This document shows, piece by piece, positions 1 to 16,975 of a stretch of DNA of 23,411 bases. The position numbers and the translations under genes are program-made. Each line of letters opens with the position of its first letter. Positions within the stretch are counted from its first letter, which is position 1. The notes under the pieces are model-generated. The model was not told the DNA's origin and ran no database searches. It saw only the letters and a program-made list of their open reading frames with translations. Origin of the DNA: Candidatus Heimdallarchaeota archaeon (GTDB lineage Archaea; Asgardarchaeota; Heimdallarchaeia; Hodarchaeales; Hodarchaeaceae); contig JBHLSH010000062.1 of the NCBI GenBank assembly GCA_048881705.1, forward strand, positions 1-23,411, written 5' to 3'.

Positions 1-69
1 GTATAGAGCTGTTCCACTTCAGGTTGTGACAAGACGTAAAGCGCCGTGAGCCCCAAGATGGTTCCAAAG
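1..69 (-). repeat. Orphan copy 0 of the 3' end of the 193-aa zinc-ribbon membrane gene (cut by the window edge)
   Basis: Reverse complement translates FGTILGLTALYVLSQPEVEQLY versus FGTIFGIAALYLLSQPEVEQLYTQK* in 9563-10144. DNA aligns to about 9573-9641. Confidence 0.95.
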
Positions 70-297
70 CTAGTGTTGGATCCCTCCGTTAGATGACCAT
101 ACCAAAGCTTAAATACTAGAATATTCTATCAGCTGGTATTTGCTCATCCAGGGGTGAGCCATTTTGACCTTTTCCTCGAGGAAGACAAAGCTCCTAGTTT
201 TTTTATCAATCCTGGTGATCAGTTCAGTTTCCCTGGGAAATATTGCCAGTTTATCAAATAGAATAGACTGCAATCCCAACAATGGTTCGTATTTAAC

Positions 298-1071
298 ATG
301 AGTATTGAATTGGGCCTGTATTACACGTTTTTACTAATAATGGCGATGATTGCAGTAGCAGTTTTCTTTAGTCTATTCTTTATACCCGCTGGATATGGCC
401 AATTAATCAGTAAACGATGGGGAACAGTTACAATTAATAACAGGTCCGGTTGGTTAATTATGGAACTCCCTGTTGTGCTTTTTATGTCACTATTTTGGCT
501 GGTTTCGGAGCGAACCCTTGAACTAACTCCCTTCGTCTTTTTCATTTTGTTTAATATTCATTATTGTCAAAGGACGTTTATTTTTCCATTATTGATCCGA
601 GGAGAAAGTCAAATGCCTTGGTCCATTATCATTCTTGGAATGGTCTTCAATTCTGTAAACGCCTTTATGCAGGGAATTTGGATCTTCTTTTTATCTCCTC
701 CTACTCTCTATACTCCACAATGGCTCTTAACGCCTCAATTTATAATTGGTACAACAATCTTTATGATTGGTTTCTTTATCAATATCCATTCAGATCATAC
801 TATCAGAAATTTACGTGAACCTGGAGATACTACCTTCCACATTCCCAATGGAGGTCTATTTAAGTATGTTACATCTGCAAACTACTTTGGAGAGTTCACG
901 GAATGGGTTGGGTGGATGATTTTGACCTTATCATGGCCAGGGTTTGTATTTGCATTATGGACATTTGCAAATTTAGGCCCAAGAGCCCACAGCCTGAGAA
1001 ATTGGTATCGAAAAACGTTTGGTGAGGAATTTCCGATGAATCGAAAACGCATGATTCCATTCATCTATTAA
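298..1071 (+). CDS. Steroid 5-alpha-reductase (SRD5A/DET2-like, 3-oxo-5-alpha-steroid 4-dehydrogenase family) membrane reductase
   Basis: Multi-TM protein with family motifs WLIMELP, HYCQRTFIFP, HSDHTIRNLR, GGLFKYVTSANYFGEFTEW and C-terminal ANLGPRA...WY...RKRMIPFIY. Confidence 0.9.
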   Translation: MSIELGLYYTFLLIMAMIAVAVFFSLFFIPAGYGQLISKRWGTVTINNRSGWLIMELPVVLFMSLFWLVSERTLELTPFVFFILFNIHYCQRTFIFPLLIRGESQMPWSIIILGMVFNSVNAFMQGIWIFFLSPPTLYTPQWLLTPQFIIGTTIFMIGFFINIHSDHTIRNLREPGDTTFHIPNGGLFKYVTSANYFGEFTEWVGWMILTLSWPGFVFALWTFANLGPRAHSLRNWYRKTFGEEFPMNRKRMIPFIY

Positions 1072-1077
1072 ATAACC

Positions 1078-1239
1078 AACGTTAAATGACTTCGATGTGG
1101 TACTCACTCTACCATGAGAAGGAAAAAAGGAAACAAAGCCCCTTCCCCGCCTCAAAAAGAGAAAAGATGCTGGAGGTTATTTCTGGGTATAGAGCTGTTC
1201 CACTTCAGGTTGTGCCAAGACGTAAAGTGCCGCGACCCC
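1078..1239 (-). repeat. Orphan copy 1 (type A) of the gene 3' end plus ~100 bp of downstream sequence
   Basis: Contains ggaggttatttctgggtatagagctgttccacttcagg (stop codon at 1177-1179) and aaagccccttccccgcctcaaaaagagaaaagatg. Near-identical to 3137-3285 starting from AACGTT. Confidence 0.95.
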
Positions 1240-1316
1240 TAGAGAATGACTCCTTTTTCGTTCCCCAAATAGCTATTGCTTTCAACAAATAAGGTTTACT
1301 CTAGGGAAAAGCTCTC

Positions 1317-1784
1317 TTACCAATGAGAATGCTCTGGGGGTCTTAATTCTGGGAAGTTTGTGTCTCTAGCACGTATAAAGGAACGAAAATGTGAGGGTAT
1401 AACCCGAATCACAGCCCATGTCTTCCTTCTAGCCAAGAACTGTTCTTCTTCAAGCCAATAGTATTTCTTGATTCTCATTGCCTTTACTTTTTCGATGGTT
1501 TCTTCGTCCTCAATGTTTTCAGCATCTCCTCTTATCATCACATATTGGTTCTTCCAATCATCCTTATAGATATGATGAACCAAGAGAGCCACATCTGGCT
1601 TCCTTTGGATGTTCCGGATCGTCAAGATGTTGGGTCTCGTCAAAATGTATATTACTCCCTCTTCTTCATGATACATGAAGTAAAATCCAGCAATATAGGG
1701 TTTACCATTTGCCCCAACAGTAGATATGATCAGTGCGTCCTCGTCATGTAGAAATTTCTTGCTTAGTTCGTCTATTTCCACCAT
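1317..1784 (-). CDS. Pyridoxamine 5'-phosphate oxidase-like flavin-binding split-barrel protein
   Basis: LIISTVGANGKPY, IYILTRPN, RNIQRKPDVALLV and YVMIRGDAE match the PNPOx-like family pattern. Confidence 0.8.
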   Translation of the reverse strand: MVEIDELSKKFLHDEDALIISTVGANGKPYIAGFYFMYHEEEGVIYILTRPNILTIRNIQRKPDVALLVHHIYKDDWKNQYVMIRGDAENIEDEETIEKVKAMRIKKYYWLEEEQFLARRKTWAVIRVIPSHFRSFIRARDTNFPELRPPEHSHW

Positions 1785-2223
1785 TGTAGTTATTTCCTCC
1801 TTTATTTTCTTTCTTGTATTTTTGCAATCATCGATAGTTAATAGTTTTCCAATTTCATTTATGGATTCTTTTAGTAAATCTACTCAAGCAAAAACCCAGA
1901 ACGGAGTAGATCTAGGAAGATCAACATTATCCAAAACTGAACGGGATCCGAATATGGAAACCTAATTAGATTGAATTATGATAGGTTATTGAATTGATCA
2001 ATGCTCGAGATGTAGTTTAAAATTTGCTCTCACAGATAAAAAAATTGGTAAAAAAGTGATATTCTAACCTCTCAAGCAAAAACAAATATATATTACAGAT
2101 ATTATATCATTTTCTTATCTGTTCATTACTTTAAATTGGAAAGGTTATGATTACATTTAGAAATGCATAAAATAAACCCGATTGGGCATAATCTAAAAAT
2201 TCAAAGTCCTAGGAGTCGATTTC

Positions 2224-2895
2224 ATGTTTAAAAATACTCGAATCCCGTACTTATATCGTTTATTTTTATTGTTAGCTTCACTTACCACGTTTACTGTTCT
2301 AGAATTACTTGTTTTTATCGAATTTCAGAATGAATTTACGGATATTATTCAAAGATATCGTACTTGGTCGTATCAATCAAATTTACTTGTTTTAATTTGG
2401 CTCGCACTTGCTATTTACTATAATACGAATGAAAATAAAAAGGATATTTTATTCGGACCATTGAAAGGTGCTATTACTTCATATATCACCGTTACGGTTG
2501 TCCTTTGGCATTTTGTTATTTCTCCGACTGCACCTCCCGCAGAAGGAATTGTAATACTTACAAATATTATGATTCATTATTTCCTGCCAATTGCTTTTAT
2601 TGTTGATTTTCTTCTATTTGACGTTCCCTCCTATGAATGGAAATCTATTCCGTCTTGGTTTATCTTTCCTTTGGTATGGACTGGTTTTGTCATGTTGACA
2701 GGTCTTACGGGATTCTTTAGAAACTATTTGGGATTACCGAATTATGTTTATCCATTCCTTAGTATTAATCGATATGGTGTAATCTCAGTAGGAACTTTCC
2801 TGTTATTCATATATATCGGTCTTTTATTGATAGCAGTAGCTTATGTTGGAATTTCTAAGATAAAAAATCGTTCCAAAGTTCTGCAAGCAAATTAA
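2224..2895 (+). CDS. Pr6Pr-like (FAR-17a/AIG1-related) integral membrane protein
   Basis: About 6 TM segments with YQSNLLV, GAITSYITVT, HYFLPIAFIVDFLLF, FPLVW and YVYPFL motifs. Confidence 0.7.
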   Translation: MFKNTRIPYLYRLFLLLASLTTFTVLELLVFIEFQNEFTDIIQRYRTWSYQSNLLVLIWLALAIYYNTNENKKDILFGPLKGAITSYITVTVVLWHFVISPTAPPAEGIVILTNIMIHYFLPIAFIVDFLLFDVPSYEWKSIPSWFIFPLVWTGFVMLTGLTGFFRNYLGLPNYVYPFLSINRYGVISVGTFLLFIYIGLLLIAVAYVGISKIKNRSKVLQAN

Positions 2896-3136
2896 ATATT
2901 CAAGGATCATGGAATCAAAAGATTGTAGAGATTAATAAAGGAGAAAAAACGAGGAGCTGTAATTGGGGAAAATCGGAAAAAGATATCATTTCTTCAAAAA
3001 AGGCACCTGATGGCTTGCAAAGCTGAGTCAATCCAGGCAAAAATACTCTCTCCTCCCCCCGTCAGGATTTGCATTGCGATTAATCAGGGATATTTCACAT
3101 CGTAGTTACGGTTGTACTACATTTAACGTAATATCA

Positions 3137-3285
3137 AACGTTAAACGACTTCGATGTGGTATTCACTCTATCATAAATAGAAAAAAGGAAACAAAGCTCC
3201 CTCCCCGCCTCAAAAAGAGAAAAGATGCTGGAGGTTATTTCTGGGTATAGAGCTGTTCCACTTCAGGCTGTGACAAGATGTAGAG
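3137..3285 (-). repeat. Orphan copy 2 (type A)
   Basis: Reverse complement encodes LYILSQPEVEQLYTQK* (stop codon at 3235-3237). The downstream tract matches copy 1 up to AACGTT at 3137-3142. Confidence 0.95.
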
Positions 3286-3358
3286 GTCTATGGGAGATTA
3301 TCCGTGTGAAATACAACCTTTTTATATTCTGTGTTTGTATATGCATATGTGATTCAGA

Positions 3359-3586
3359 ATGGGTAGTAAAACCATTAGCTTGGATGAAGAAGCCTATAAG
3401 AGACTAAAACGAGAAAAAAACGCTAATGAATCTTTTTCTGATGTGGTAAAGCGACTAACCCGTCCTGTCCAGCATAAATCACTGTTAGCTTTTGCAGGGA
3501 TCTGGGATTTTTCGCCACAAGAGGAAAAAACCCTTAAAACTGTTCTTAAAGAGCTAGGAGTCCAAATCAATGCTTTGTTTGGATAG
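3359..3586 (+). CDS. vapB: Archaeal VapB-type antitoxin
   Basis: MGSKTISLDEEAYKRLKREK..ESFSDVVKRL is the typical archaeal VapB N-terminus. Overlaps the downstream PIN gene. Confidence 0.85.
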   Translation: MGSKTISLDEEAYKRLKREKNANESFSDVVKRLTRPVQHKSLLAFAGIWDFSPQEEKTLKTVLKELGVQINALFG

Positions 3587-3968
3587 CGATTTTATGATTG
3601 CTCTCCTTCGGGGCGATAAGGAAGCTATCACCAAAGCTGAACAACTAGAGGAAGAGTCCCGGGAAATTGTTTCAACTGCCATTAATGCGTTAGAACTATT
3701 TGTGGGAATTGTCGCTGTTGATGGAATATCAGGAACACGAGTCAAGAAAACTCGTGACTTTCTCAATAATCTAACAATACTACACTTAGATGCGAGCTCT
3801 GCTGAACGCTCAGCTTACATCCTTAATTCCTTAGAAAAACTTGGAAAATCCATTGGCTTAAAAGATTCTCTAATCGCTGGCATCGTATTAGAACATAAAG
3901 CTGACATCTTGACTCGTAATACTAAGTATTTTGAGAGGGTGTCTGGATTAAAAGTTGAGCAATGGTAG
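3570..3968 (+). CDS. vapC: PIN-domain toxin VapC
   Basis: CLDSDFMIALLRG, STAINALEL, DSLIAGIVLE and ILTRNTKYFERV provide the PIN acidic residues. 132 aa, paired with the antitoxin. Confidence 0.9.
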   Translation: MLCLDSDFMIALLRGDKEAITKAEQLEEESREIVSTAINALELFVGIVAVDGISGTRVKKTRDFLNNLTILHLDASSAERSAYILNSLEKLGKSIGLKDSLIAGIVLEHKADILTRNTKYFERVSGLKVEQW

Positions 3969-3990
3969 GTATGGTTCAACTTCATCTTTA

Positions 3991-4071
3991 GGAAAAATAG
4001 GGCGGAGTCTGGGTGTTACTTCGCGTAGAGCTGTTCGACTTCAGGTTGAGACAAGACACAGAACGCCGCGA
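3991..4071 (-). repeat. Orphan copy 3 (type B variant)
   Basis: Reverse complement encodes AAFCVLSQPEVEQLYAK* (stop codon at 4016-4018). Post-stop ggagtctgggtg is shared with copy 5. Confidence 0.9.
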
Positions 4072-4092
4072 AGTTGGTTTCTCTTTGCTGAA

Positions 4093-5571
4093 TTACAAGG
4101 ATTTTAGAACTTGGTCAAGTACATCATCAAAATTACTGTAATCCCATTCAACATACTTATCTGGTTGCACACGAACTTCTTCATTAGCACTACCTGAATA
4201 GTCAATTCCCATTGCTGGTGTAAAGCGAATTACTAGTTTAGAATTAGGTAGGACATAAAAAATGGGTGAATCACTTATTCCGTCTCCACCTGTTGGTGTT
4301 CCATAGATTTTAGCAAATTTCGTTTCTTTACAGAACAGGGCAAAGGCATCTGTTGCCGAAAAGGTGATTCCATCCACAAGTAAAATTATTTTTCCAGAAA
4401 AATCAATTTCTTGGGAAGGGTCTACCGTTTGAGTGTATTTATATACCGTAAAATCTTGTTCTGTTATTTCTGTGGGGAGATTGTCAAATTGTTCTTTAGA
4501 AACAATAGAATTGATGTTCGATTGTGATAGTTTTCTAAATAGATTAACATACTTACCGGAACGATATGCGAGATACATCTTGCTAACCATTTTTTCTCTT
4601 CCAAGTGGAGAAATAACATTCTTCATCCAACAATTGAAACTCCCACCTTCATTCCTTCTCACATCTATAATTATACAATCATATTTTTCTACATGGTTAT
4701 AAAATTCCATTAATTGAGCGTGATCTTCATCAATATGCTCATCCATGAAATCTTTTATTCTAATGTAACCAATTCTTTTTTCAGGCAAAATTTCCGTTTT
4801 AAAACGGGTTTCTATCATTTTATATGGATTATCATATGTATATTCATATCCTGAATCGAATATTACTCTTTTCTCCTCTCCAGTAGATTTCTTGATAGTG
4901 AAATTAGCTTTTTGGCCAAAATGTATTGGTGTAATTCTCCAGAGAAAAATTTTTTTTCTATTAAAGTCCCAATCAAGAAGGCCTGTCTCGTAACACTCTG
5001 AAACAGCTTCATCAATTGGTTTACCATTAACAGCAGTTACACTGGTAGTTCCTTCACCATAAGTTTCCTTCCAAGAACCATATCCATCAAAAATCTTATA
5101 TTCACCTCTATCATAGAAAATTAGAACTTCAAAATTCATTCCATACCGTTTCTTAATTATTTGATCTAATGCTGATCTCCAATAGTTCATTGCTTCTTGA
5201 ACTTCAGGAATAAAAATAGCATTGAATGGAGGAGTTTTTTGAGCCCAATGATCTTGTTTGAAGAAGGAATCAAACATACTTGGACGAACAATCACTGTAT
5301 GGGCATTTTGTAACGCAGTAACAGCATCCCAAAATGTTTCTAGAATATGATATATGTTTTTTGCATTTTTTATTCGTGCAAAGTATTTTTTTTTAAAATC
5401 TAACCAGTTATACCCCGTAAATCTTTCTTTTAACCATAAATAACAAAAATTTTCCTTTATCATTTTATAGAAATGATTGAAATCGTCAATCCAATTATCT
5501 ATCGTCATATCCTTTGGATGAATTGGTTTAATTACAATTTCTGGATATTTCTGCATCGTTACATGCCCCAT
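4093..5571 (-). CDS. S41-family (tail-specific/C-terminal processing type) peptidase
   Basis: IGYIRIKDF, IIIDVRRNEGG, ILLVDGITFSATDAF (catalytic Ser) and YGTPTGG motifs. Confidence 0.88.
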   Translation of the reverse strand: MGHVTMQKYPEIVIKPIHPKDMTIDNWIDDFNHFYKMIKENFCYLWLKERFTGYNWLDFKKKYFARIKNAKNIYHILETFWDAVTALQNAHTVIVRPSMFDSFFKQDHWAQKTPPFNAIFIPEVQEAMNYWRSALDQIIKKRYGMNFEVLIFYDRGEYKIFDGYGSWKETYGEGTTSVTAVNGKPIDEAVSECYETGLLDWDFNRKKIFLWRITPIHFGQKANFTIKKSTGEEKRVIFDSGYEYTYDNPYKMIETRFKTEILPEKRIGYIRIKDFMDEHIDEDHAQLMEFYNHVEKYDCIIIDVRRNEGGSFNCWMKNVISPLGREKMVSKMYLAYRSGKYVNLFRKLSQSNINSIVSKEQFDNLPTEITEQDFTVYKYTQTVDPSQEIDFSGKIILLVDGITFSATDAFALFCKETKFAKIYGTPTGGDGISDSPIFYVLPNSKLVIRFTPAMGIDYSGSANEEVRVQPDKYVEWDYSNFDDVLDQVLKSL

Positions 5572-5788
5572 CCTAGTTTTAGAGGAATTAAATTGTCCTT
5601 ACATACGTTGTCCAAAACCTAACTTTTTACTTTATAGAGAGATAGAAAATTGAGTCCTATTTGAAATGAATGGAGGTTAGCTTCTCACCTGATTTCTCAG
5701 GTATATACCCCAGTATATAATTTTCTTGATCTAACCTTGGTTAAATGATATCATATATAGGATTATGTATAGCTTCCTTGAGGTATCC

Positions 5789-5973
5789 AACGTTATACGA
5801 CACCTCAGTACCATATCAGTAAAGAATAGGCAAAAAAGAAAAGACTCCTTCCCCACCTCAAAAAGAGAAAAGATGTTGGAGGTTATTTCCAGGTATAGAG
5901 TGGGTCTACTCCAGGTTGTGATAAGACGTAAAAGGGTAGGATTCCAAAGGGAATATTGAACAGATTGAAGGGG
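5789..5973 (-). repeat. Orphan copy 4 (type A, diverged, with internal deletion)
   Basis: Reverse complement encodes FNLFNIPFG-ILPFYVLSQPGVDPLYTWK* (stop codon at 5883-5885). Downstream ctccttccccacctcaaaaagagaaaagatgttggagg is present, with AACGTTATACGAC at the left edge. Confidence 0.9.
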
Positions 5974-6016
5974 TAGTATTTTTAACACCTACGGGTACTA
6001 ATTCTATTGATCCTTT

Positions 6017-6262
6017 ATGCCCACAATGAGTACGAAAATCCCTGAAAACCTGAAAAAACGGATTGAAAAACTTTCCCACATAAATTGGAGTGAAATCATG
6101 AGAACCGCACTTCTTGAACGAGTCGAGGAGGAAGAAAAAAGAATTATGGATCGCGATACCAAATTAATTGATCAAACCATTCAAAAAATGGATCGATTGC
6201 GGAGAAAAGCAAGGGGAAATACCACAGAGGAGTTGAGAGCATGGCGCGAGATCAGACATTAG
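6017..6262 (+). CDS. Putative ribbon-helix-helix/CopG-type antitoxin
   Basis: 81 aa, MSTKIPENLKKRIEKL..INWSEIMRTALLERV pattern. Overlaps the downstream PIN gene. Confidence 0.75.
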   Translation: MPTMSTKIPENLKKRIEKLSHINWSEIMRTALLERVEEEEKRIMDRDTKLIDQTIQKMDRLRRKARGNTTEELRAWREIRH

Positions 6263-6663
6263 TTATCGACGCATCTGTTGCCCTAAAATGGTTTGTTGAC
6301 GAAATTCATACAGAGAAAGCACTCAAACTCAGAGAATTTCTTAGAAAGGACGCGACCCCTGTTGTTCCCGCCCTATTTTTTTATGAAATTGCTAACGTCC
6401 TTCGTTATAAACCAGAATTCGGTAGTAATGACGTGATGAACATAATTAAAACCCTTTTAAACTTTCAATTTAAAATTGAACTCCTTGATGAGAAATTAAC
6501 AGACCTTACAGCTAAATTAGCCTATCAATTTGGAATAACAATCTATGATGCGAGCTACATTGCCATTGGCCAGTTATATCAAGTCCATTTCATTACCGCA
6601 GACGAGAAATTGGTTTCCCAAATTCAAAACGAACAAGTAATTCTCCTTGAAAATTGGAAATAA
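6241..6663 (+). CDS. vapC: PIN-domain toxin (VapC-like)
   Basis: VIDASVALKWF, FFYEIANVL, TIYDASYIAIG and FITADEKL motifs. Confidence 0.9.
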   Translation: MARDQTLVIDASVALKWFVDEIHTEKALKLREFLRKDATPVVPALFFYEIANVLRYKPEFGSNDVMNIIKTLLNFQFKIELLDEKLTDLTAKLAYQFGITIYDASYIAIGQLYQVHFITADEKLVSQIQNEQVILLENWK

Positions 6664-6810
6664 TTAAGTGTCCACTTCATGTGAACCCAGTTTCCTGACA
6701 GATCTTGAGAGTGACTCTGTGATATATATCTAATAGACGGAAACAACCAATTCCGAGTTCATTCTTTTTCATGACCTGCTCAACAAGCCTCTCCGCGCAT
6801 CCCAAGAAGA

Positions 6811-6939
6811 AAGAGAAAAAGGAAAAAGCTCCATCCCCCGCGAAAAAAGGTTGGAGTCTGGGTGTTACGTCGTGTAGAGGTGTTCGACTTTAGGTTGTGA
6901 CAAGATGTAAGACGTTGTGATCCCAAAGAAGGTTTCAAA
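6811..6939 (-). repeat. Orphan copy 5 (type B variant)
   Basis: Reverse complement encodes FETFFGITTSYILSQPKVEHLYTT* (stop codon at 6865-6867). Retains the aaagctccatcccccg motif at 6825-6840. Confidence 0.9.
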
Positions 6940-6943
6940 ATTC

Positions 6944-7924
6944 TTAGAAATCTTGTAGATTGAACGCGATATCTCCACTCGTAGATGTCACCGTGAAATC
7001 ATATTTCGTCTCAGAAAGATCGTAACTTGATGAAGTATATGTTGTTAGATTATTAGGTAGCTGGATTAATCCCGATTCAGTGATTGCTGCAATATTTATT
7101 CCAAAAACTGGATTCAGATATAAATCAACATATACCATTTGTGCATAGCTGTTTATATTAAACTGCAGAGTACTAGGATTATTATTCAAGTTTTCCCATT
7201 GCACTAGATCTATTGTCGTTCGGAAGGAACGCCAGTCAGGTCGCAGCTGGATTTCCCATATTGTTAGATTTGAAGTATACCTATTCTCAAATAATTCGAA
7301 TCGTACCGCCGTCAAATCCGAATGAAGGACGAGTGTATCGGATACGTTGAACGTAACGTTAGTAAAGGATGCGGTATGCCCTGTCTCACTCCATCCATAA
7401 TTCAAATTCAGATGAGATATGGTTAAATCCTGTAACTTAACATTATAACCTTCAACGCAACCATCCAATATATCTAACGAGAAACTAATGTTTTCTTGAA
7501 TATAAAATCGTACATCGTTCCACCCAGGCGCTGGATCCACAGCTGCAAAACCCGAATCGTCAAATACCACCGCTATAGTCTCATTATCAACTTCAGAATA
7601 CAATAAAATTTCAGAGTACAGGAAGGCTTTGACGTGTGAAAGATTGGCCCCTTGCCTCCGAAAAGCGTCGACCTCGATCGATAGTACGTAATTAGCATCC
7701 TTTGGGGCCATAGATATGCTCGCATTTCCATAACTATGATCAATAGATAGTTTCACATTAGAATAGTTAGCAGGAATCGTATCTGTAACTGTAGCAAGGA
7801 ATGTTATTGGCCTTGTCCCTATAGATAAAATTAGATACATAAACAGGATATTCGTACCAATTAAAATTGAAACGACCACTGCCAATAAGATAAAGAATGT
7901 TAGTATTTCCCTTTTTGAGATCAA
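6944..7924 (-). CDS. Membrane-anchored beta-strand-rich surface protein (possibly DUF4097/adhesin-like)
   Basis: N-terminal TM helix, many N-x-S/T sequons, beta-rich body ending in TVTSTSGDI. Family assignment is tentative. Confidence 0.6.
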   Translation of the reverse strand: MISKREILTFFILLAVVVSILIGTNILFMYLILSIGTRPITFLATVTDTIPANYSNVKLSIDHSYGNASISMAPKDANYVLSIEVDAFRRQGANLSHVKAFLYSEILLYSEVDNETIAVVFDDSGFAAVDPAPGWNDVRFYIQENISFSLDILDGCVEGYNVKLQDLTISHLNLNYGWSETGHTASFTNVTFNVSDTLVLHSDLTAVRFELFENRYTSNLTIWEIQLRPDWRSFRTTIDLVQWENLNNNPSTLQFNINSYAQMVYVDLYLNPVFGINIAAITESGLIQLPNNLTTYTSSSYDLSETKYDFTVTSTSGDIAFNLQDF

Positions 7925-7938
7925 TATCCTACTCTCTT

Positions 7939-9267
7939 TTAGGATTTATTTCGTCTTTTTCTTTCGATTAAGCAGACGATTAATGCAACAAAACCAATTA
8001 GGCCTGAATACAACGTTATATTTGACGTAATTGGGGTGTCCATCACGTCTGTTCCTACAGACGACATGTCTGAAGAACTAGTACCAAAAGAACCAGTCGT
8101 TACTAACAGCATATCTGAAGAGCCAGAACCAAAAGAATACGTACTTCCTGCGAGGATGTAATCTTCGTCACCTGTTTGAATCACCTTGGAAGCAGCATCA
8201 TAGCCGAATCCCCCAAACGTCTGGTTCCATTCCGTGCTACCATTTTCATCAATTTTTACCAACCACATATCACCTTGCCCCATACCAAATGACCAGGTTC
8301 GTCCTGCTAGCGCATATCCTTGATCATGGGTCTTGATCATTGAATAACCATTATCCTTCGCTTCTCCCCCATAAGTTTGGTTCCATTGTACCAGGCCTTT
8401 TTCATCGATTCTTATCATCCATAGGTCTGCTGAACCAAGCCCAAATGAGTACGTACTCCCAGCAAGCGTATATCCGCCATCATGAGTTTGTACAACAGCT
8501 ACTGCTTCTTCGGGCCCTATTCCTCCATACGTATGGCTCCACTCAATGCCTCCTGTTTCATTGGTTTTTACTAGCCACATATCACTCTGCCCTGCCCCGA
8601 CTGACATAGTTTTTCCAACGAGTGCATACCCTCCGTCTTTCGTTGATACGAGAGAATAACCGTGGTCTAACATAGTCCCCCCAAAGGTCTGATTCCATTC
8701 CACGATTCCCGTTTCATCGGTCTTTATTAGCCACATATCATCATCCCCTTCGCCGTACGATCCGGTATATCCTACCAATGCAAAACCCCCATCTGGTGCC
8801 TGAACCACTGAGCGAGCAATATCCAATTTTGGACCTCCATATGTATGGTCCCATACGATCTCGCCGTTATCATTAACTCGTACCAACCACCCATCTGCAT
8901 TTCCCTCTATACCTGACTCTGTATATCCCGCCAAAACATATCCCCCATCAGCCATTTGGATGACGCTAGAACCTACCTCGTTATATTTTCCGCCGTAGGT
9001 GTGGTTCCATTCCGCGGTTCCATTCTCATCGGTTTTTACTAGCCAAAGATCCATCTTTCCTTCCCCGAAGGATTCAGTTGAACCAACAAGTAGATACCCC
9101 CCGTCCAAGGTCTGGATAACTGAATATGCGTAATCGAATGTAGTTCCGCCATAGGTCCGATTACTCCATTCACTTCCCGTCCTCAAGGATGAAAGCTTAT
9201 CCGCCTGAGGATCATATCTGGAAATAGTTTGTAATTGGATGTTTTGAAGACTGAGAATGAGTAACAA
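7939..9267 (-). CDS. Secreted seven-repeat beta-propeller surface protein with C-terminal TM anchor
   Basis: Seven ~52-aa repeats WN.TYGG...SV.QT.DGGY.LAG.T.S.G.G..D.WL.K.D..G, a Ser/Thr linker, a TM helix and the basic tail RKRRNKS. No in-frame ATG before an upstream stop, so the start is uncertain. Confidence 0.85.
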   Translation of the reverse strand: MLLILSLQNIQLQTISRYDPQADKLSSLRTGSEWSNRTYGGTTFDYAYSVIQTLDGGYLLVGSTESFGEGKMDLWLVKTDENGTAEWNHTYGGKYNEVGSSVIQMADGGYVLAGYTESGIEGNADGWLVRVNDNGEIVWDHTYGGPKLDIARSVVQAPDGGFALVGYTGSYGEGDDDMWLIKTDETGIVEWNQTFGGTMLDHGYSLVSTKDGGYALVGKTMSVGAGQSDMWLVKTNETGGIEWSHTYGGIGPEEAVAVVQTHDGGYTLAGSTYSFGLGSADLWMIRIDEKGLVQWNQTYGGEAKDNGYSMIKTHDQGYALAGRTWSFGMGQGDMWLVKIDENGSTEWNQTFGGFGYDAASKVIQTGDEDYILAGSTYSFGSGSSDMLLVTTGSFGTSSSDMSSVGTDVMDTPITSNITLYSGLIGFVALIVCLIERKRRNKS

Positions 9268-9510
9268 CGATAATATGAGGAATAATCTCAGCGTTGACCC
9301 CTCTTTACAGAAATCCGACCCACATTATACTTGAGTCTTGCTTATAACTGCTATGGCTTTGAGCTGATCTGCTTTTTCCTTGCTTTTAGATGGTTCTCGA
9401 TACATGCAGCTAAGTAATTTTCATTATCCTCAAGTGTATGACTGATATATCCTGAATCTTCTAAGACAAAACCTACGAATTGCTTCTTTCAATTCAGAAT
9501 ATCTTCAAGA

Positions 9511-9641
9511 AAAAAGTGATAAAGCTCCTTCCCCGTCTTAAAAAGAGAAAAGATGTTGGAGGTTATTTCTGGGTATAGAGCTGTTCCACTTCAGGCTGTG
9601 ACAAGAGGTAGAGCGCCGCAATCCCAAAGATGGTTCCAAAG
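9511..9641 (-). repeat. Native copy of the repeated unit (3' end and downstream tract of the intact gene)
   Basis: aaagctccttccccg...aaaagagaaaagatgttggaggttatttctgggtatagagctgttccacttcagg overlaps the stop of 9563-10144. Confidence 0.95.
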
Positions 9642-10144
9642 GGTAAGTTGATCAAATTCAGGGCTCCAATTACCATAGTTCCAATTCGCCCCGAATTCTC
9701 ATATTTCATGAGGCGCTTCCCACTGATAATACTGGCGAAGGCATATACCAAACACACCAAGGCTACTCCAAAGAGTATCACCGCGAGGAACGGAGCTATC
9801 TTCATCAGAATTACCTGCGTTTCCGGCTCCTCAATGAGCCCAGACCGCAGGAGCACATTAAATAACGGTGCCAATGCCAATAGCGCCATCCCAATCAAAA
9901 GCGCGAATACCCCAAAAACGATCTCAACGACCCCAAGAATTTGTATGTATCCTCTGTAGGTCTCTTGACGCGAGGGTTTCGGAACGTAAACATTCCCTGG
10001 CTTCCGTACCGCTAATTCCGTCCCACAGGCCTGACAAAAGAAATCCTCAGCGCCTACACTCGATCCACACTTCGTACAATATTTCGAAGCGGCTTGAAAC
10101 TCAATTTTTTTCTCGGTTGCTTTTGTACTATACATCCTCTTCAC
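9563..10144 (-). CDS. Zinc-ribbon membrane protein; anchor gene of the cassette array
   Basis: CTKCG...FCQACG double CxxC followed by 3-4 TM helices and the conserved tail NLPFGTIFGIAALYLLSQPEVEQLYTQK. Confidence 0.85.
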   Translation of the reverse strand: MKRMYSTKATEKKIEFQAASKYCTKCGSSVGAEDFFCQACGTELAVRKPGNVYVPKPSRQETYRGYIQILGVVEIVFGVFALLIGMALLALAPLFNVLLRSGLIEEPETQVILMKIAPFLAVILFGVALVCLVYAFASIISGKRLMKYENSGRIGTMVIGALNLINLPFGTIFGIAALYLLSQPEVEQLYTQK

Positions 10145-10150
10145 TTACTC

Positions 10151-10765
10151 TCATCGAATATTTCGGGTGTCATTCTTGTGGCGAGAACCAAACACAACAA
10201 CTAATCCTGGAATAATGAAACAGCACATTACAATTACCATCAGGATAATTTTCCATGGAAACGCTGAAAAGCTCCAATTTCCAAAGTTACTACCGAATTC
10301 TGACCCCATGTGACCCATCTCGCCACCAAAGCGTCCAAAGAATTCGCCCAGGCCTCTGCCAAGTTCACCAAACACTGTTCCCATGTGCCCTCCAAATTCT
10401 CCGAAGCCTCCAAAGAAAGCAGGGGCAAATATCGCTAGTAACGCCATTATCGCGATCATAAAGAATACAAATCCGACCAACGACCCAACAAACGAACCCG
10501 AATGGCACGACTCCCGTGTCCGATATACACGGTACGGCCGTACCCGACGAACTTCATGTGCTGGTACAAACTCTACCCGTTGAGCGACCGGCTCTTTCTG
10601 GGGTCCTGGCATCCGTATTGGCGCCTCCTCGTCTTCACTTGGGGTTCCCCAGGTCTGAACAGGCTTAACTTCGTTTTCTATGGGCCGTAACCTCTGGCCA
10701 CAATTCGGGCAGAATAATGAATCATCTTCGTTTTGGGCTCCACACTGCGTACAATATCTCATCAT
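10151..10765 (-). CDS. Zinc-ribbon membrane protein with Gly/Phe-rich loop
   Basis: YCTQCGAQN.....FCPNCG, two TM helices around FGGFGEFGG...FGRFGG. Stop lies 6 bp before the start of the next gene. Confidence 0.85.
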   Translation of the reverse strand: MMRYCTQCGAQNEDDSLFCPNCGQRLRPIENEVKPVQTWGTPSEDEEAPIRMPGPQKEPVAQRVEFVPAHEVRRVRPYRVYRTRESCHSGSFVGSLVGFVFFMIAIMALLAIFAPAFFGGFGEFGGHMGTVFGELGRGLGEFFGRFGGEMGHMGSEFGSNFGNWSFSAFPWKIILMVIVMCCFIIPGLVVVFGSRHKNDTRNIR

Positions 10766-11442: not shown

Positions 11443-11670
11443 TCTTTGGTAGCTTATTAGGTTTGGTCGTCCATCTGCAGTGATGAGTGAACCCAAGTCT
11501 ACTCCTGTGCAATTTCCGCTGGCCATTTTCAAAGCAGTGGAACACATGCTTCGGGGGATGAACTACGATCAGCAGTACGAGGTGGATAAAGCCAAAAGAC
11601 ATTATCACACCACGTCAAAGATCTTATTAGACGTCATAAAATGTGTTTCGAAGTACCGTATTGGAAGCTT
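11443..11670 (+). pseudogene. Truncated, frameshifted duplicate of the 5' UTR and MIT-like region of the Vps4-like gene (direct repeat of about 15604-15832)
   Basis: Shared tctttggtagcttattagg leader and 55 collinear codons from ATG 11483. A 1-bp deletion follows, then EVPYWKL versus DVPYEKL in the shifted frame. Confidence 0.93.
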
Positions 11671-15505: not shown

Positions 15506-15643
15506 ATTAGAGGAGAATTACCTACACTCACGTTCTACCTCCTCCAGTGGAATAAGGTTCTTTTCTCCGAAAACTTTTCTTTGACTCAGAATTTGTAAAT
15601 TATTCTTTGGTAGCTTATTAGGTTGGCTTGCCCACATTCAGTG

Positions 15644-16975
15644 ATGAGTGAACCCAAGTCTGCTCCTGTGCAATTTCCCGTGGCTATCTTCAAGGCAGTG
15701 GAGCACATGCTGCGGGGGATGAACTACGATCAGCAGCACGAGGTGGATAAAGCCAAACGGCACTATCGTGCCACTTCAAAGATCCTATTAGACGTCATAA
15801 ACCGTGTTTCCGATGTGCCTTATGAAAAGCTGTGGTTAACCCAAGCACAGATCTGTAACAATCGAGTCAAACAATTAATGTTCGGAGATAGAAACAAGTC
15901 TGCACAAGCTATGTCTCGGAGGCCATCTTCGAATAATCTAGCCACGAAGGCAGAGTCAAAGCACCAAAGGGGCCCTCAATCACAGGATGAAGACAAAGAA
16001 TTAGAGGAACGAATTGACGCGTGTCTGCTGAGTCCACGCGCCAAGTTAACATGGGATGATCTCATTGGACTAGACAAAATAGTGGAATTAGTCAAGGAGG
16101 TCGTTGTCTTGCCATTAAAGCATCCTAAGGTGCTCCAGAAACGGCCAGGAGCCCTCCGGACAGTGCTGACGTTTGGGCCACCTGGGTGTGGGAAAACACT
16201 GCTTGTTATGATCTTGACGGCACAAGTGAACATTAACGTCTATGCCGTATCCGCGGCGAGTCTGCTTTCGAAATGGTTCGGAGAGAGTCAGAAGATGATA
16301 AAGAAACTTTACACGACTGCTTGGAAGAATGCGCCTTCGATTGTCTTCATAGATGAGTTTGATGGGATGTTCGGGACAACGGGAGGCAATAGCGAGATGT
16401 CAAGTACGGTGGTTCAGATTCAAAAGGAATTATTGCAGTATATGGATGGTGCCTATACCCCAGAAATCAATCAGACCGTAACAATTGCAGCAACTAATAA
16501 TCCATGGGCATTGGATTCGGCCCAAGTGCGACGATTTGAACGGGTCTTGTATGTACCGCCTCCAAATCTGGAAGCAATCCAACATCTCTTAGCATGGGGG
16601 TTCCTAGAAGTTCCGAATAGCCTTAGGTCGCATGATCGCTATCAGCTCGGACTTCTGCTCAGAGGGTATACGCCCAGTGAAATAATCAATATCTGCAAGA
16701 CGGCCAAGGTACGGGCCTTCAAAGCAGGAATCCAGAACAATAAAATGCAATCCGTAAGTCGAGAGGATGTGTTGGCCAGTCTGGAGACGTTACAACCCAT
16801 GTTGAAACAACGAGGAAAAGCGGGAGTAGGAACCATTGAGTTTCGGAAGTGGAATCGCAAATGGGGGCGACCGCCCATTGAGTATCCAGTGGAACCATGG
16901 GAAGAACCTGCCTACCATCCTTCACAGGATCCCGATTTACAAAAGGAAAACTTGGTGAAATACTCCAAGTGGTGA
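15644..16975 (+). CDS. vps4: Vps4/CdvC-like AAA+ ATPase with N-terminal MIT-like domain
   Basis: Helical N-domain, LTWDDLIGL, Walker A GPPGCGKT, pore loop SKWFGES, Walker B IVFIDE, ATNNPW, RRFE Arg finger and a terminal FRKWNRKWG helix. Orthology to true Vps4 is unproven. Confidence 0.8.
   Translation: MSEPKSAPVQFPVAIFKAVEHMLRGMNYDQQHEVDKAKRHYRATSKILLDVINRVSDVPYEKLWLTQAQICNNRVKQLMFGDRNKSAQAMSRRPSSNNLATKAESKHQRGPQSQDEDKELEERIDACLLSPRAKLTWDDLIGLDKIVELVKEVVVLPLKHPKVLQKRPGALRTVLTFGPPGCGKTLLVMILTAQVNINVYAVSAASLLSKWFGESQKMIKKLYTTAWKNAPSIVFIDEFDGMFGTTGGNSEMSSTVVQIQKELLQYMDGAYTPEINQTVTIAATNNPWALDSAQVRRFERVLYVPPPNLEAIQHLLAWGFLEVPNSLRSHDRYQLGLLLRGYTPSEIINICKTAKVRAFKAGIQNNKMQSVSREDVLASLETLQPMLKQRGKAGVGTIEFRKWNRKWGRPPIEYPVEPWEEPAYHPSQDPDLQKENLVKYSKW

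Follow-up and report, generated by a model that had tools for sequence, protein, structure and literature searches.

Here we describe an array of gene cassettes on a 23,411-nt contig (C62, hereafter the window) of a metagenome-assembled genome (MAG) of a Candidatus Heimdallarchaeota archaeon (G000; other G numbers denote relatives in the same genus), in which short orphan copies of the 3′ end of one conserved membrane-protein gene, here called the anchor gene, alternate with unrelated cargo. We read this region as an additive cassette hotspot seated on the 3′ end of the anchor gene, at which cassettes are exchanged under the guidance of homology, and give this reading an even chance of being correct. 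It is built on the anatomy of the array, the chimeric nature of its joints, a signature of selection in the orphaned coding ends, one transfer between lineages, re-ordering between sister species, and arrays that carry no recombinase genes.

The anchor protein has an N-terminal Zn-ribbon, for which Pfam matches lie below the gathering cut-off, and several transmembrane (TM) helices, and the native coding end at position 9563 reads ...LYTQK followed by a stop. Intact orthologues in G008 and G003 share 59-62% identity with it and conserve the upstream synteny. Across the genus, 3′ fragments of the gene occur in at least 11 of 22 genomes and intact orthologues in only three, plus G001, for which a metagenome contig from the X4 run places an intact gene (93% identity) in a G001-type strain. 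Behind the native gene, homology to the other copies ends past the T-run of a terminator-like hairpin, at the start of the first cassette (cassette a). The same hairpin and the AACGTTGG motif lie 3′ of the intact orthologue in G008, and the motif also stands behind tails in G017 and in metagenome contigs, which argues that the whole block is the natural 3′ flank of the gene. At the far edge of this flank, a distal motif (GTCGTWTAACGTTGG) is kept genus-wide despite divergence of the spacers that separate it from the stop codon, and it could represent a protein binding site; the motif at the end of the f4 flank (element iii2) likewise follows tails, some intact and some orphaned, in G008, in G017, and on metagenome contigs. 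RNA folding of spacer, hairpin, and distal (iii) elements gave z-scores of 0 to -1.4, no better than shuffled sequences, and the only structural claim made here for the flank is a terminator-like G-rich stem with a T-run.

Each cassette comprises one or two genes and is bordered by a worn copy of the last 17-25 codons of the anchor gene (Table 1). A 20-mer of the tail, searched with three mismatches allowed, finds seven sites in the window (the native end and six others, all on the same strand), against none expected by chance. Five of these fragments had been listed in a first-pass annotation made from the sequence alone, and all five lie where it placed them, with a match to the native tail far above chance; the sixth (f0) is cut by the contig start. 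The final 23 nt of another contig of the same genome, C99, are the initial 23 nt of C62, and C99 holds three more tail copies (10473-10495, ~9221-9259, and 7558-7591); to judge from these sequences, the array very probably continues onto C99, giving a total of at least nine fragments (six on C62 and three on C99). As alternative identities for the fragments, small expressed genes and in-frame tails of the cargo were considered and rejected, given their ragged 5′ ends, the lack of start codons, and frames unlike those of the upstream open reading frames (ORFs).

The fragments end in two ways. In type A, found behind the native gene, f4, f2, and f1, the coding end runs TAT ACC CAG/TGG AAA TAA (YTQK or YTWK and a stop) and is followed by CCTCCARCATCTTTTCTCTTTTTGAGG, beginning CCTCC, with a spacer reading CCTCCARCATCTTTTCTC...; in type B, found behind f5 and f3, it is one codon shorter, TAC ACG/GCG AAG/ACG TAA (YAK or YTT and a stop), and is followed by CACCCAGACTCC. 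Both the definition of these types and their order from the gene outward (B, A, B, A, A) agree with the first-pass annotation. The two differ by one extra CAG codon in A, by linked synonymous markers, and by the spacer, and both lead into a G-rich stem with a T-run (GGGGAAGGAGCTTTGTTTCCTTTTTT); four boundaries extend further into a 50-nt element ending in GTCGTWTAACGTTGG, and the cargo begins right behind this element. Types A and B are seen in G000 and G001 alone, where one G001 copy joins a B-like coding end to an A spacer; other genomes have further spacer types, with most coding ends reading YTK, YTR, or YTKY before the stop. We regard A and B as two allelic forms of the 3′ flank within the G000/G001 clade. 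No type B tail was found on an intact gene, whether among the 21 genus genomes, the metagenome contigs (five loci), or the GTDB contigs (15 loci, same genus).

The nature of the fragments emerges from comparison with G001, a sister species (rpoB 93% identical) that carries the same kind of array on its contig C31. Left and right parts of each fragment were placed by nearest-neighbour tables, the copies having only 48-69 aligned nt in common. The left part of f1 matches the G001 copy behind the PNPOx-like gene, and its right part matches the G001 anchor flank at 96%. The steroid-reductase cassette (f), which follows the PNPOx fragment in G000 and is the first cassette directly behind the anchor in G001, keeps the upstream A spacer, hairpin, and distal element iii1 in both genomes; the segment from 1239 to 1 of C62 corresponds at 94% to 17795-16557 of the G001 locus L023, and the left part that precedes it differs there. 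The fragment trailing the PNPOx-like gene has its left part in common between the two genomes; as its tail, G000 has A/iii1 and G001 has B/iii2. In their left parts, f0 agrees with G001 at 16560 (88%) and f3 with a G012 copy (98%), and in both cases the tails differ; the right part of f5 has the G001 B copy as its nearest neighbour (87%); and the left part of f4 bears the signature NLFNIPFG, as in G019, G012, and G007, where the resident gene has NLINLPFG. A fragment is thus a joint, whose left part goes with the gene-proximal cargo and whose right part (stop, A or B spacer, hairpin) goes with the distal cargo. The first-pass proposal that the fragments arrived with their cargo fits each half taken separately, but the halves belong to different cargos, so that a fragment is not a single unit of lineage, and what had been described as two interleaved lineages are two families of cassette leading ends.

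Two cassettes document re-ordering. Cassettes e and f are 90-94% identical in G001, where they stand in a different order with different neighbours and where the two genes of e form two cassettes with a fragment still between them. Since this identity is close to the rpoB background of 93%, both cassettes look inherited and reshuffled rather than newly imported. A third cassette behaves otherwise. With rpoB as the yardstick of identity (the Vps4-like gene was unusable, being absent at the DNA level in four of five relatives), G012 and G000 are 76% identical. The right end of the S41-peptidase cassette (c), including the left part of f3, matches the end of G012 contig C75 at 98.8% over 82 nt, and its left end matches the end of G012 contig C68 at 93.8% over 112 nt; nothing else on C75 or C68 matches G000 sequence, and the hairpins on both contigs are of non-G000 type. 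In addition, the G012-type upstream junction appears as a loose end at 5641 in a sediment run of the source study, and contigs with the S41 cassette at ~98% identity occur in two other metagenomes. Set against 76% in rpoB, cassette ends at 93.8-98.8% indicate a recent transfer of this cassette, together with the left part of f3, between lineages. Of the repeated inter-lineage transfer suggested earlier, this one case stands (94-99% identity in G012), but e and f, at genomic background, do not bear it out.

In the mechanism that we propose, a block of ~70-190 nt, consisting of the last 17-25 codons, stop, spacer, hairpin, and, in its long form, the distal GTCGTWTAACGTTGG, would serve as a portable homology arm, and a cassette would consist of the right part of a block, the cargo, and the left part of a block. 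Entry and exit would occur by recombination within the block: a single crossover would insert a looped-out circle, or a double crossover would swap DNA between the arrays of related lineages. Every portion of the block might become the working end of the gene, and incoming blocks would derive from working alleles of related strains, which would explain why the copies differ mostly at synonymous sites. We infer that general homologous recombination, rather than a dedicated enzyme, drives these exchanges and that a circle is their intermediate. The direct repeats are partial copies of the 3′ end of the target gene, which is regenerated, and homology blocks common to G000, G001, and G012 flank the cassettes that these genomes share.

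The joints do not fall at one position. They lie within the coding core (f1, f3, f0), after the T-run of the hairpin (where the native gene meets cassette a), within a 22-nt duplicate of the hairpin (an epimerase cassette of G001), and within the A spacer (a truncated TPR gene of G001), and are spread along at least 110 nt of the block; three to four are at or near a conserved 23-mer and three others in hairpin, T-run, or spacer, at a marker density too low for 10-bp placement. By Pfam, the cargo of the G000, G001, and closed G010 arrays holds no recombinase genes; no element-borne recombinase or remnant was found in these three arrays, serine recombinases and unbinned elements not having been searched genome-wide. 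No IntI-type tyrosine recombinase adjoins the array. PF00589 has a single match in the whole genome, on contig C16, which scores 259.9 against the cut-off of 220 for archaeal XerA (NF040815) and falls under the integron-integrase cut-offs. Likewise, the core pattern had no match in viral contigs, and no tRNA or Rfam family was found in the arrays.

These results bear directly on tandem site-specific integration at the gene's 3′ end, with an integrase that is located elsewhere, lost, or unassembled and with cassettes that are remnants or are mobilised in trans. Such integration would produce direct repeats at a gene 3′ end with chimeric, attL/attR-like joints, would fit the several joints in or beside the conserved 23-mer core and the genus-wide retention of the distal motif, and could have escaped notice in an incomplete MAG (90.9%). 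We nevertheless consider it rather unlikely: the arrays of three genomes, one of them closed, lack an integrase, the sole tyrosine recombinase is XerA, viral contigs give no match, joints extend over more than 100 nt, and the supposed core varies at synonymous sites between genomes. Furthermore, analogous arrays built on other genes are unrelated in sequence, and each would need its own recombinase.

The analogous arrays use several kinds of anchor. The smc gene (G000:C23 5772-9422) has two downstream copies of its 3′ end (4911-4974 and 147-207; 85% and 90% identical over ~62-65 nt), which a genome-wide self-BLAST filter missed and which were found directly. A 228-nt direct duplicate, 85.5% identical (11443-11669 and 15604-15831), spans the leader and first ~70 codons of a Vps4-like AAA gene and brackets 3.9 kb of cargo (an HTH_10 regulator, EamA, a hydrolase, and a flavodoxin); the upstream copy stays in frame for ~60 codons and is then broken. 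Being a 5′ duplicate, it is the mirror image of the 3′ arrays. A homologue of the VapBC cassette b lies in G013 (L048, G013:C456) between 116-nt repeats (2548-2663 and 3390-3505) that correspond to the final ~35 codons of another membrane gene; further VapBC homologues are found in a four-copy array of G003 (L045, G003:C41, 1827-4688) and between direct repeats of other sequence in G018 (L050, G018:C181, 1596-3426). The conserved VapBC unit runs from a promoter box (GGTAATATTTTTAAGACC) through the stop codon. Most array candidates from the self-BLAST proved to be repeat-domain proteins or tandem paralogues (C70, C44, C2, and C8, the last with five tandem ~350-aa genes) and were discarded. Since unrelated anchors (smc, the Vps4-like gene, and others) share one architecture, a single sequence-specific enzyme cannot explain them all, whereas homology-guided recombination can.

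Several points weigh against homology-guided exchange. MAG completeness is 90.9% and mobile elements often go unbinned, so a recombinase acting in trans is possible; several joints lie at the most conserved 23-mer (CCTGAAGTGGAACAGCTCTATAC), which a site-specific core would fit too; and the homology flanking one G001 cassette spans just 22 nt, a short stretch by the standards of RadA-type recombination. The retention of GTCGTWTAACGTTGG while the spacers diverged is not explained by homologous recombination alone and may mark a protein recognition site. The rule that right parts travel with distal cargo rests on two cassettes. Finally, Logan contigs of four runs, whose uncovered parts are uninformative, contain no circle, excision or deletion joint, or empty site; they show the G000-type and G001-type arrangements only, and three joints from the X4 run repeat the G001-type order.

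Because the anchor is protein-coding, synonymous and non-synonymous counts on the orphans can separate copies that came from working alleles from local duplicates that have decayed, a test that is impossible for tRNA-anchored islands. In NG86 counts of the six fragments against the native gene (S = 80.5 and N = 255.5 sites), pairwise comparison within the window gives 29 synonymous and 29 non-synonymous differences (pS 0.36, pN 0.11, omega ~0.25), with most differences at third and first codon positions. Several differences are common to more than one fragment, and counting each variant codon once leaves 13 synonymous to 21 non-synonymous (ratio 0.51, p = 0.048 versus neutrality); moreover, some of the replacements in f4 and f5 are radical (E>G, Q>P, Q>W, E>K, L>S), and 12 nt are missing, in frame, from f4. 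The earlier observation that many changes are synonymous or conservative is thus supported by the overall omega, but the non-redundant count and the radical changes temper it, and the codon-wise signal from the window alone is only marginal.

The genus as a whole gives a stronger signal. In a minimal count of events over 17 orphans, there are 57 synonymous and 39 non-synonymous changes (pN/pS 0.22, p = 1e-13 versus neutrality). A model in which a snapshot of the gene is taken and then decays neutrally has a ratio floor of ~(omega+1)/2, roughly 0.55, which the observed 0.22 rejects (p = 4e-6). Orphan-orphan pairs give pN/pS of 0.04-0.34 and intact-intact pairs 0.07-0.17. In G010, a closed genome without an intact copy, counts of synonymous against non-synonymous changes among the three fragments are 8:3, 8:1, and 7:1, with pN/pS of 0.04-0.12 at pS of 0.23-0.36; such ratios where no intact gene is present exclude neutral decay of local duplicates. 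These codon patterns show that most of the copies diverged within working genes of related lineages and were orphaned recently.

Local duplication, in which each insertion copies the resident tail, as a very long target-site duplication or a snapshot, and the copy then decays in place, is therefore improbable. If the repeat were made from the target, it would be natural for one VapBC cargo family to occur behind three unrelated repeat families, and the 13:21 count of the window (ratio 0.51) cannot be distinguished from the 0.55 floor. It is contradicted, however, by the genus ratio and by the G010 fragments. Differences from the native gene (f5 16/69, f4 17/57, f3 10/48, f2 1/42, f1 7/54, and f0 7/66) are unordered by distance, the left part of f3 moves with the S41 cargo into a species at 76% rpoB identity, and the left part of f4 bears the allele signature of another clade. 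The first-pass annotation had argued against local duplicates in neutral decay, and this part of it is upheld: dN/dS is not near 1, divergence does not increase monotonically with distance, and not all fragments are closest to the resident gene. About as improbable is an integron-like system, in which fragment, hairpin, and AACGTT would form an attC-like site with crossover at AAC|GTT by an unrecognised enzyme: cargo does begin directly behind ...AACGTTGG in four cassettes, and the cassettes of the arrays are short, often promoter-to-stop, and rich in toxin-antitoxin pairs, but there is no IntI and the sole tyrosine recombinase scores as XerA, the right part including hairpin and iii leaves the proximal cargo in three of three informative cases, the AACGTT element is missing at three boundaries, and the hairpins fold no better than shuffled sequence.

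Returning to homology-guided exchange, a wider claim can be put forward only tentatively, at somewhat less than even likelihood, namely that Asgard archaea of the Hodarchaeales type acquire and trade genes via recombinase-free arrays in which the ends of ordinary host genes (Zn-ribbon, smc, Vps4-like, and others) act as self-propagating homology arms, moving along with every cassette from one lineage to another. Asgard genomes are large and rich in imported genes, with few documented routes of gene entry. An array that grows and is re-ordered by recombination in copies of a host gene tail, without an integrase carried by any element, would offer such a route, one both simple and general, and population metagenomes could then serve to test one mechanism of Asgard genome plasticity. 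If the wider claim is true, general homologous recombination would run an integron-like system of gene capture in the prokaryotes most closely related to eukaryotes.

Table 1. Features of the array, listed from the anchor gene outward (positions in the window unless another locus is named)
Feature	Position	Strand	Description	Basis
Anchor gene	9563..10144	-	193-aa Zn-ribbon and multi-TM protein, C-terminus ...FGTIFGIAALYLLSQPEVEQLYTQK, stop	ORF
Native 3′ flank	9505..9562	-	Type A spacer and G-rich/T-run terminator-like hairpin	Alignments
Cassette a	6944..9267	-	442-aa repeat (beta-propeller-like) protein with C-terminal TM (7939-9267); 326-aa membrane/secreted protein (6944-7924)	
Fragment f5	6865-6939	-	FETFFGITTSYILSQPKVEHLYTT, stop; ...LYTT, type B	
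Flank of f5	6808..6864	-	Type B spacer and hairpin	
Cassette b	6017..6663	+ (inverted relative to anchor)	VapBC-like antitoxin (6017-6262) and PIN toxin (6241-6663)	Pfam PIN
Fragment f4	5883-5975	-	NLFNIPFG....ILPFYVLSQPGVDPLYTWK, stop; ...LYTWK, type A tail	
Flank of f4	5787..5882	-	Type A spacer, hairpin, distal element iii2 ending ...GTCGTATAACGTTGG	
Cassette c	4093..5571	-	S41-family peptidase, 492 aa	Pfam PF03572
Fragment f3	4016-4069	-	AAFCVLSQPEVEQLYAK, stop; ...LYAK, type B tail	
Cassette d	3359..3968	+	Second VapBC-like pair: antitoxin (3359-3586) and PIN (3570-3968)	Pfam PIN
Fragment f2	3235-3285	-	LYILSQPEVEQLYTQK, stop; ...LYTQK, type A	
Flank of f2	3130..3234	-	Type A spacer, hairpin, distal element iii1 ending AACGTTTG	
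Cassette e	1317..2895	+ and -	Pr6Pr-family membrane protein (2224-2895, +); PNPOx-like flavoprotein (1317-1784, -)	
Fragment f1	1177-1239	-	GVAALYVLAQPEVEQLYTQK, stop; ...LYTQK, type A	
Flank of f1	1071..1176	-	Type A spacer, hairpin, iii1 ending AACGTTGG	
Cassette f	298..1071	+	Steroid 5-alpha-reductase-like membrane enzyme	Pfam PF02544
Fragment f0	1-68	-	FGTILGLTALYVLSQPEVEQLY..., sixth copy, cut by contig start	
Distal motif GTCGTWTAACGTTGG	1071-1090, 3130-3149, 5787-5801; L026 ~4140-4160; L062, L065, L074			

The cargo is varied. Neither protein of cassette a matches a Pfam family; the 442-aa protein is built of ~52-aa units (156-nt period, at least five copies), and its gene has many weak DNA matches across the genus. 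Homologues of cassette b at 73-83% identity are found in four other genomes, behind other repeats, and cassette d has an 82% homologue in G010. The leader of the S41 cassette (5530-5808) is pieced together from modules of 80-110 nt that have their matches in different genomes (5530-5641 in G012, 5641-5724 in G015, and 5729-5808 in five genomes), and these modules may be remnants of lost cassettes. The cargo on C99 includes a 469-aa surface protein as well as an OYE-type oxidoreductase. Where the array ends on that contig, farthest from the anchor (L001, G000:C99), a 264-nt stretch (1052-1315) is copied in two pieces, 4827-5014 and 7338-7417 (82% and 91%), and these copies surround TPR, HTH, and MFS genes; G001 is without most of this interval, and the truncated TPR gene there is joined to an A-spacer remnant. 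Contigs of G001, G008, G012, G017, G019, and G021 (L023, L030, L033, L036, and others) often end within a fragment, and cassette interiors, such as the S41 gene in G012, are absent from the bins. The arrays break short-read assemblies, and their gene content is under-counted.

Literature searches found no account of this array architecture. Among known systems, integrons, including those of archaea (PMC9668308), resemble it in their small, mostly promoter-poor or single-operon cassettes beside a fixed site, their wealth of toxin-antitoxin pairs, and their shuffling between relatives. Unlike integrons, the array has neither IntI nor an attC-type site and is for that reason not an integron; its repeats are the coding end of a host gene, and crossover does not occur at a cassette-boundary motif. 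Integrated elements of Atabeyarchaeia carry integrases and an 11-bp att site (PMC11529989). The array comes nearest to additive islands at tRNA or tmRNA genes, namely the tycheposons of Prochlorococcus (10.1101/2020.12.28.424599) and the ssrA islands of Dehalococcoides (PMC3146451). In these islands, too, one insertion after another enters at the 3′ end of a single conserved gene; each time the gene is regenerated, and part of its end stays behind as a direct repeat. The islands vary between close relatives and include degenerate members without an integrase. In contrast to them, the array has a protein-coding anchor whose copies carry a codon-level signature of selection, cassettes of only 0.7-2.6 kb with one or two genes, no integrase or remnant in three arrays, and joints of varying position.

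Polymorphic toxin loci (CDI, Rhs) carry rows of orphan CT/immunity gene-end fragments behind an intact gene, which are homologous and can recombine, and these fragments are alternative functional 3′ ends with variable toxin domains. Such rows are found in the array as well, but in it the fragments are what is conserved, and what varies is unrelated cargo. The minimal mobile elements of Neisseria exchange cassettes that lie between conserved flanks. This happens by homologous recombination once DNA has been taken up and requires no dedicated recombinase, and one cassette is swapped between two different conserved genes. The proposed exchange of cassettes between conserved flanks by homologous recombination would be common to both systems. 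Unlike the minimal mobile elements, named as such in PMC1538595, the array repeats its homology arm internally, so that cassettes accumulate and can be re-ordered.

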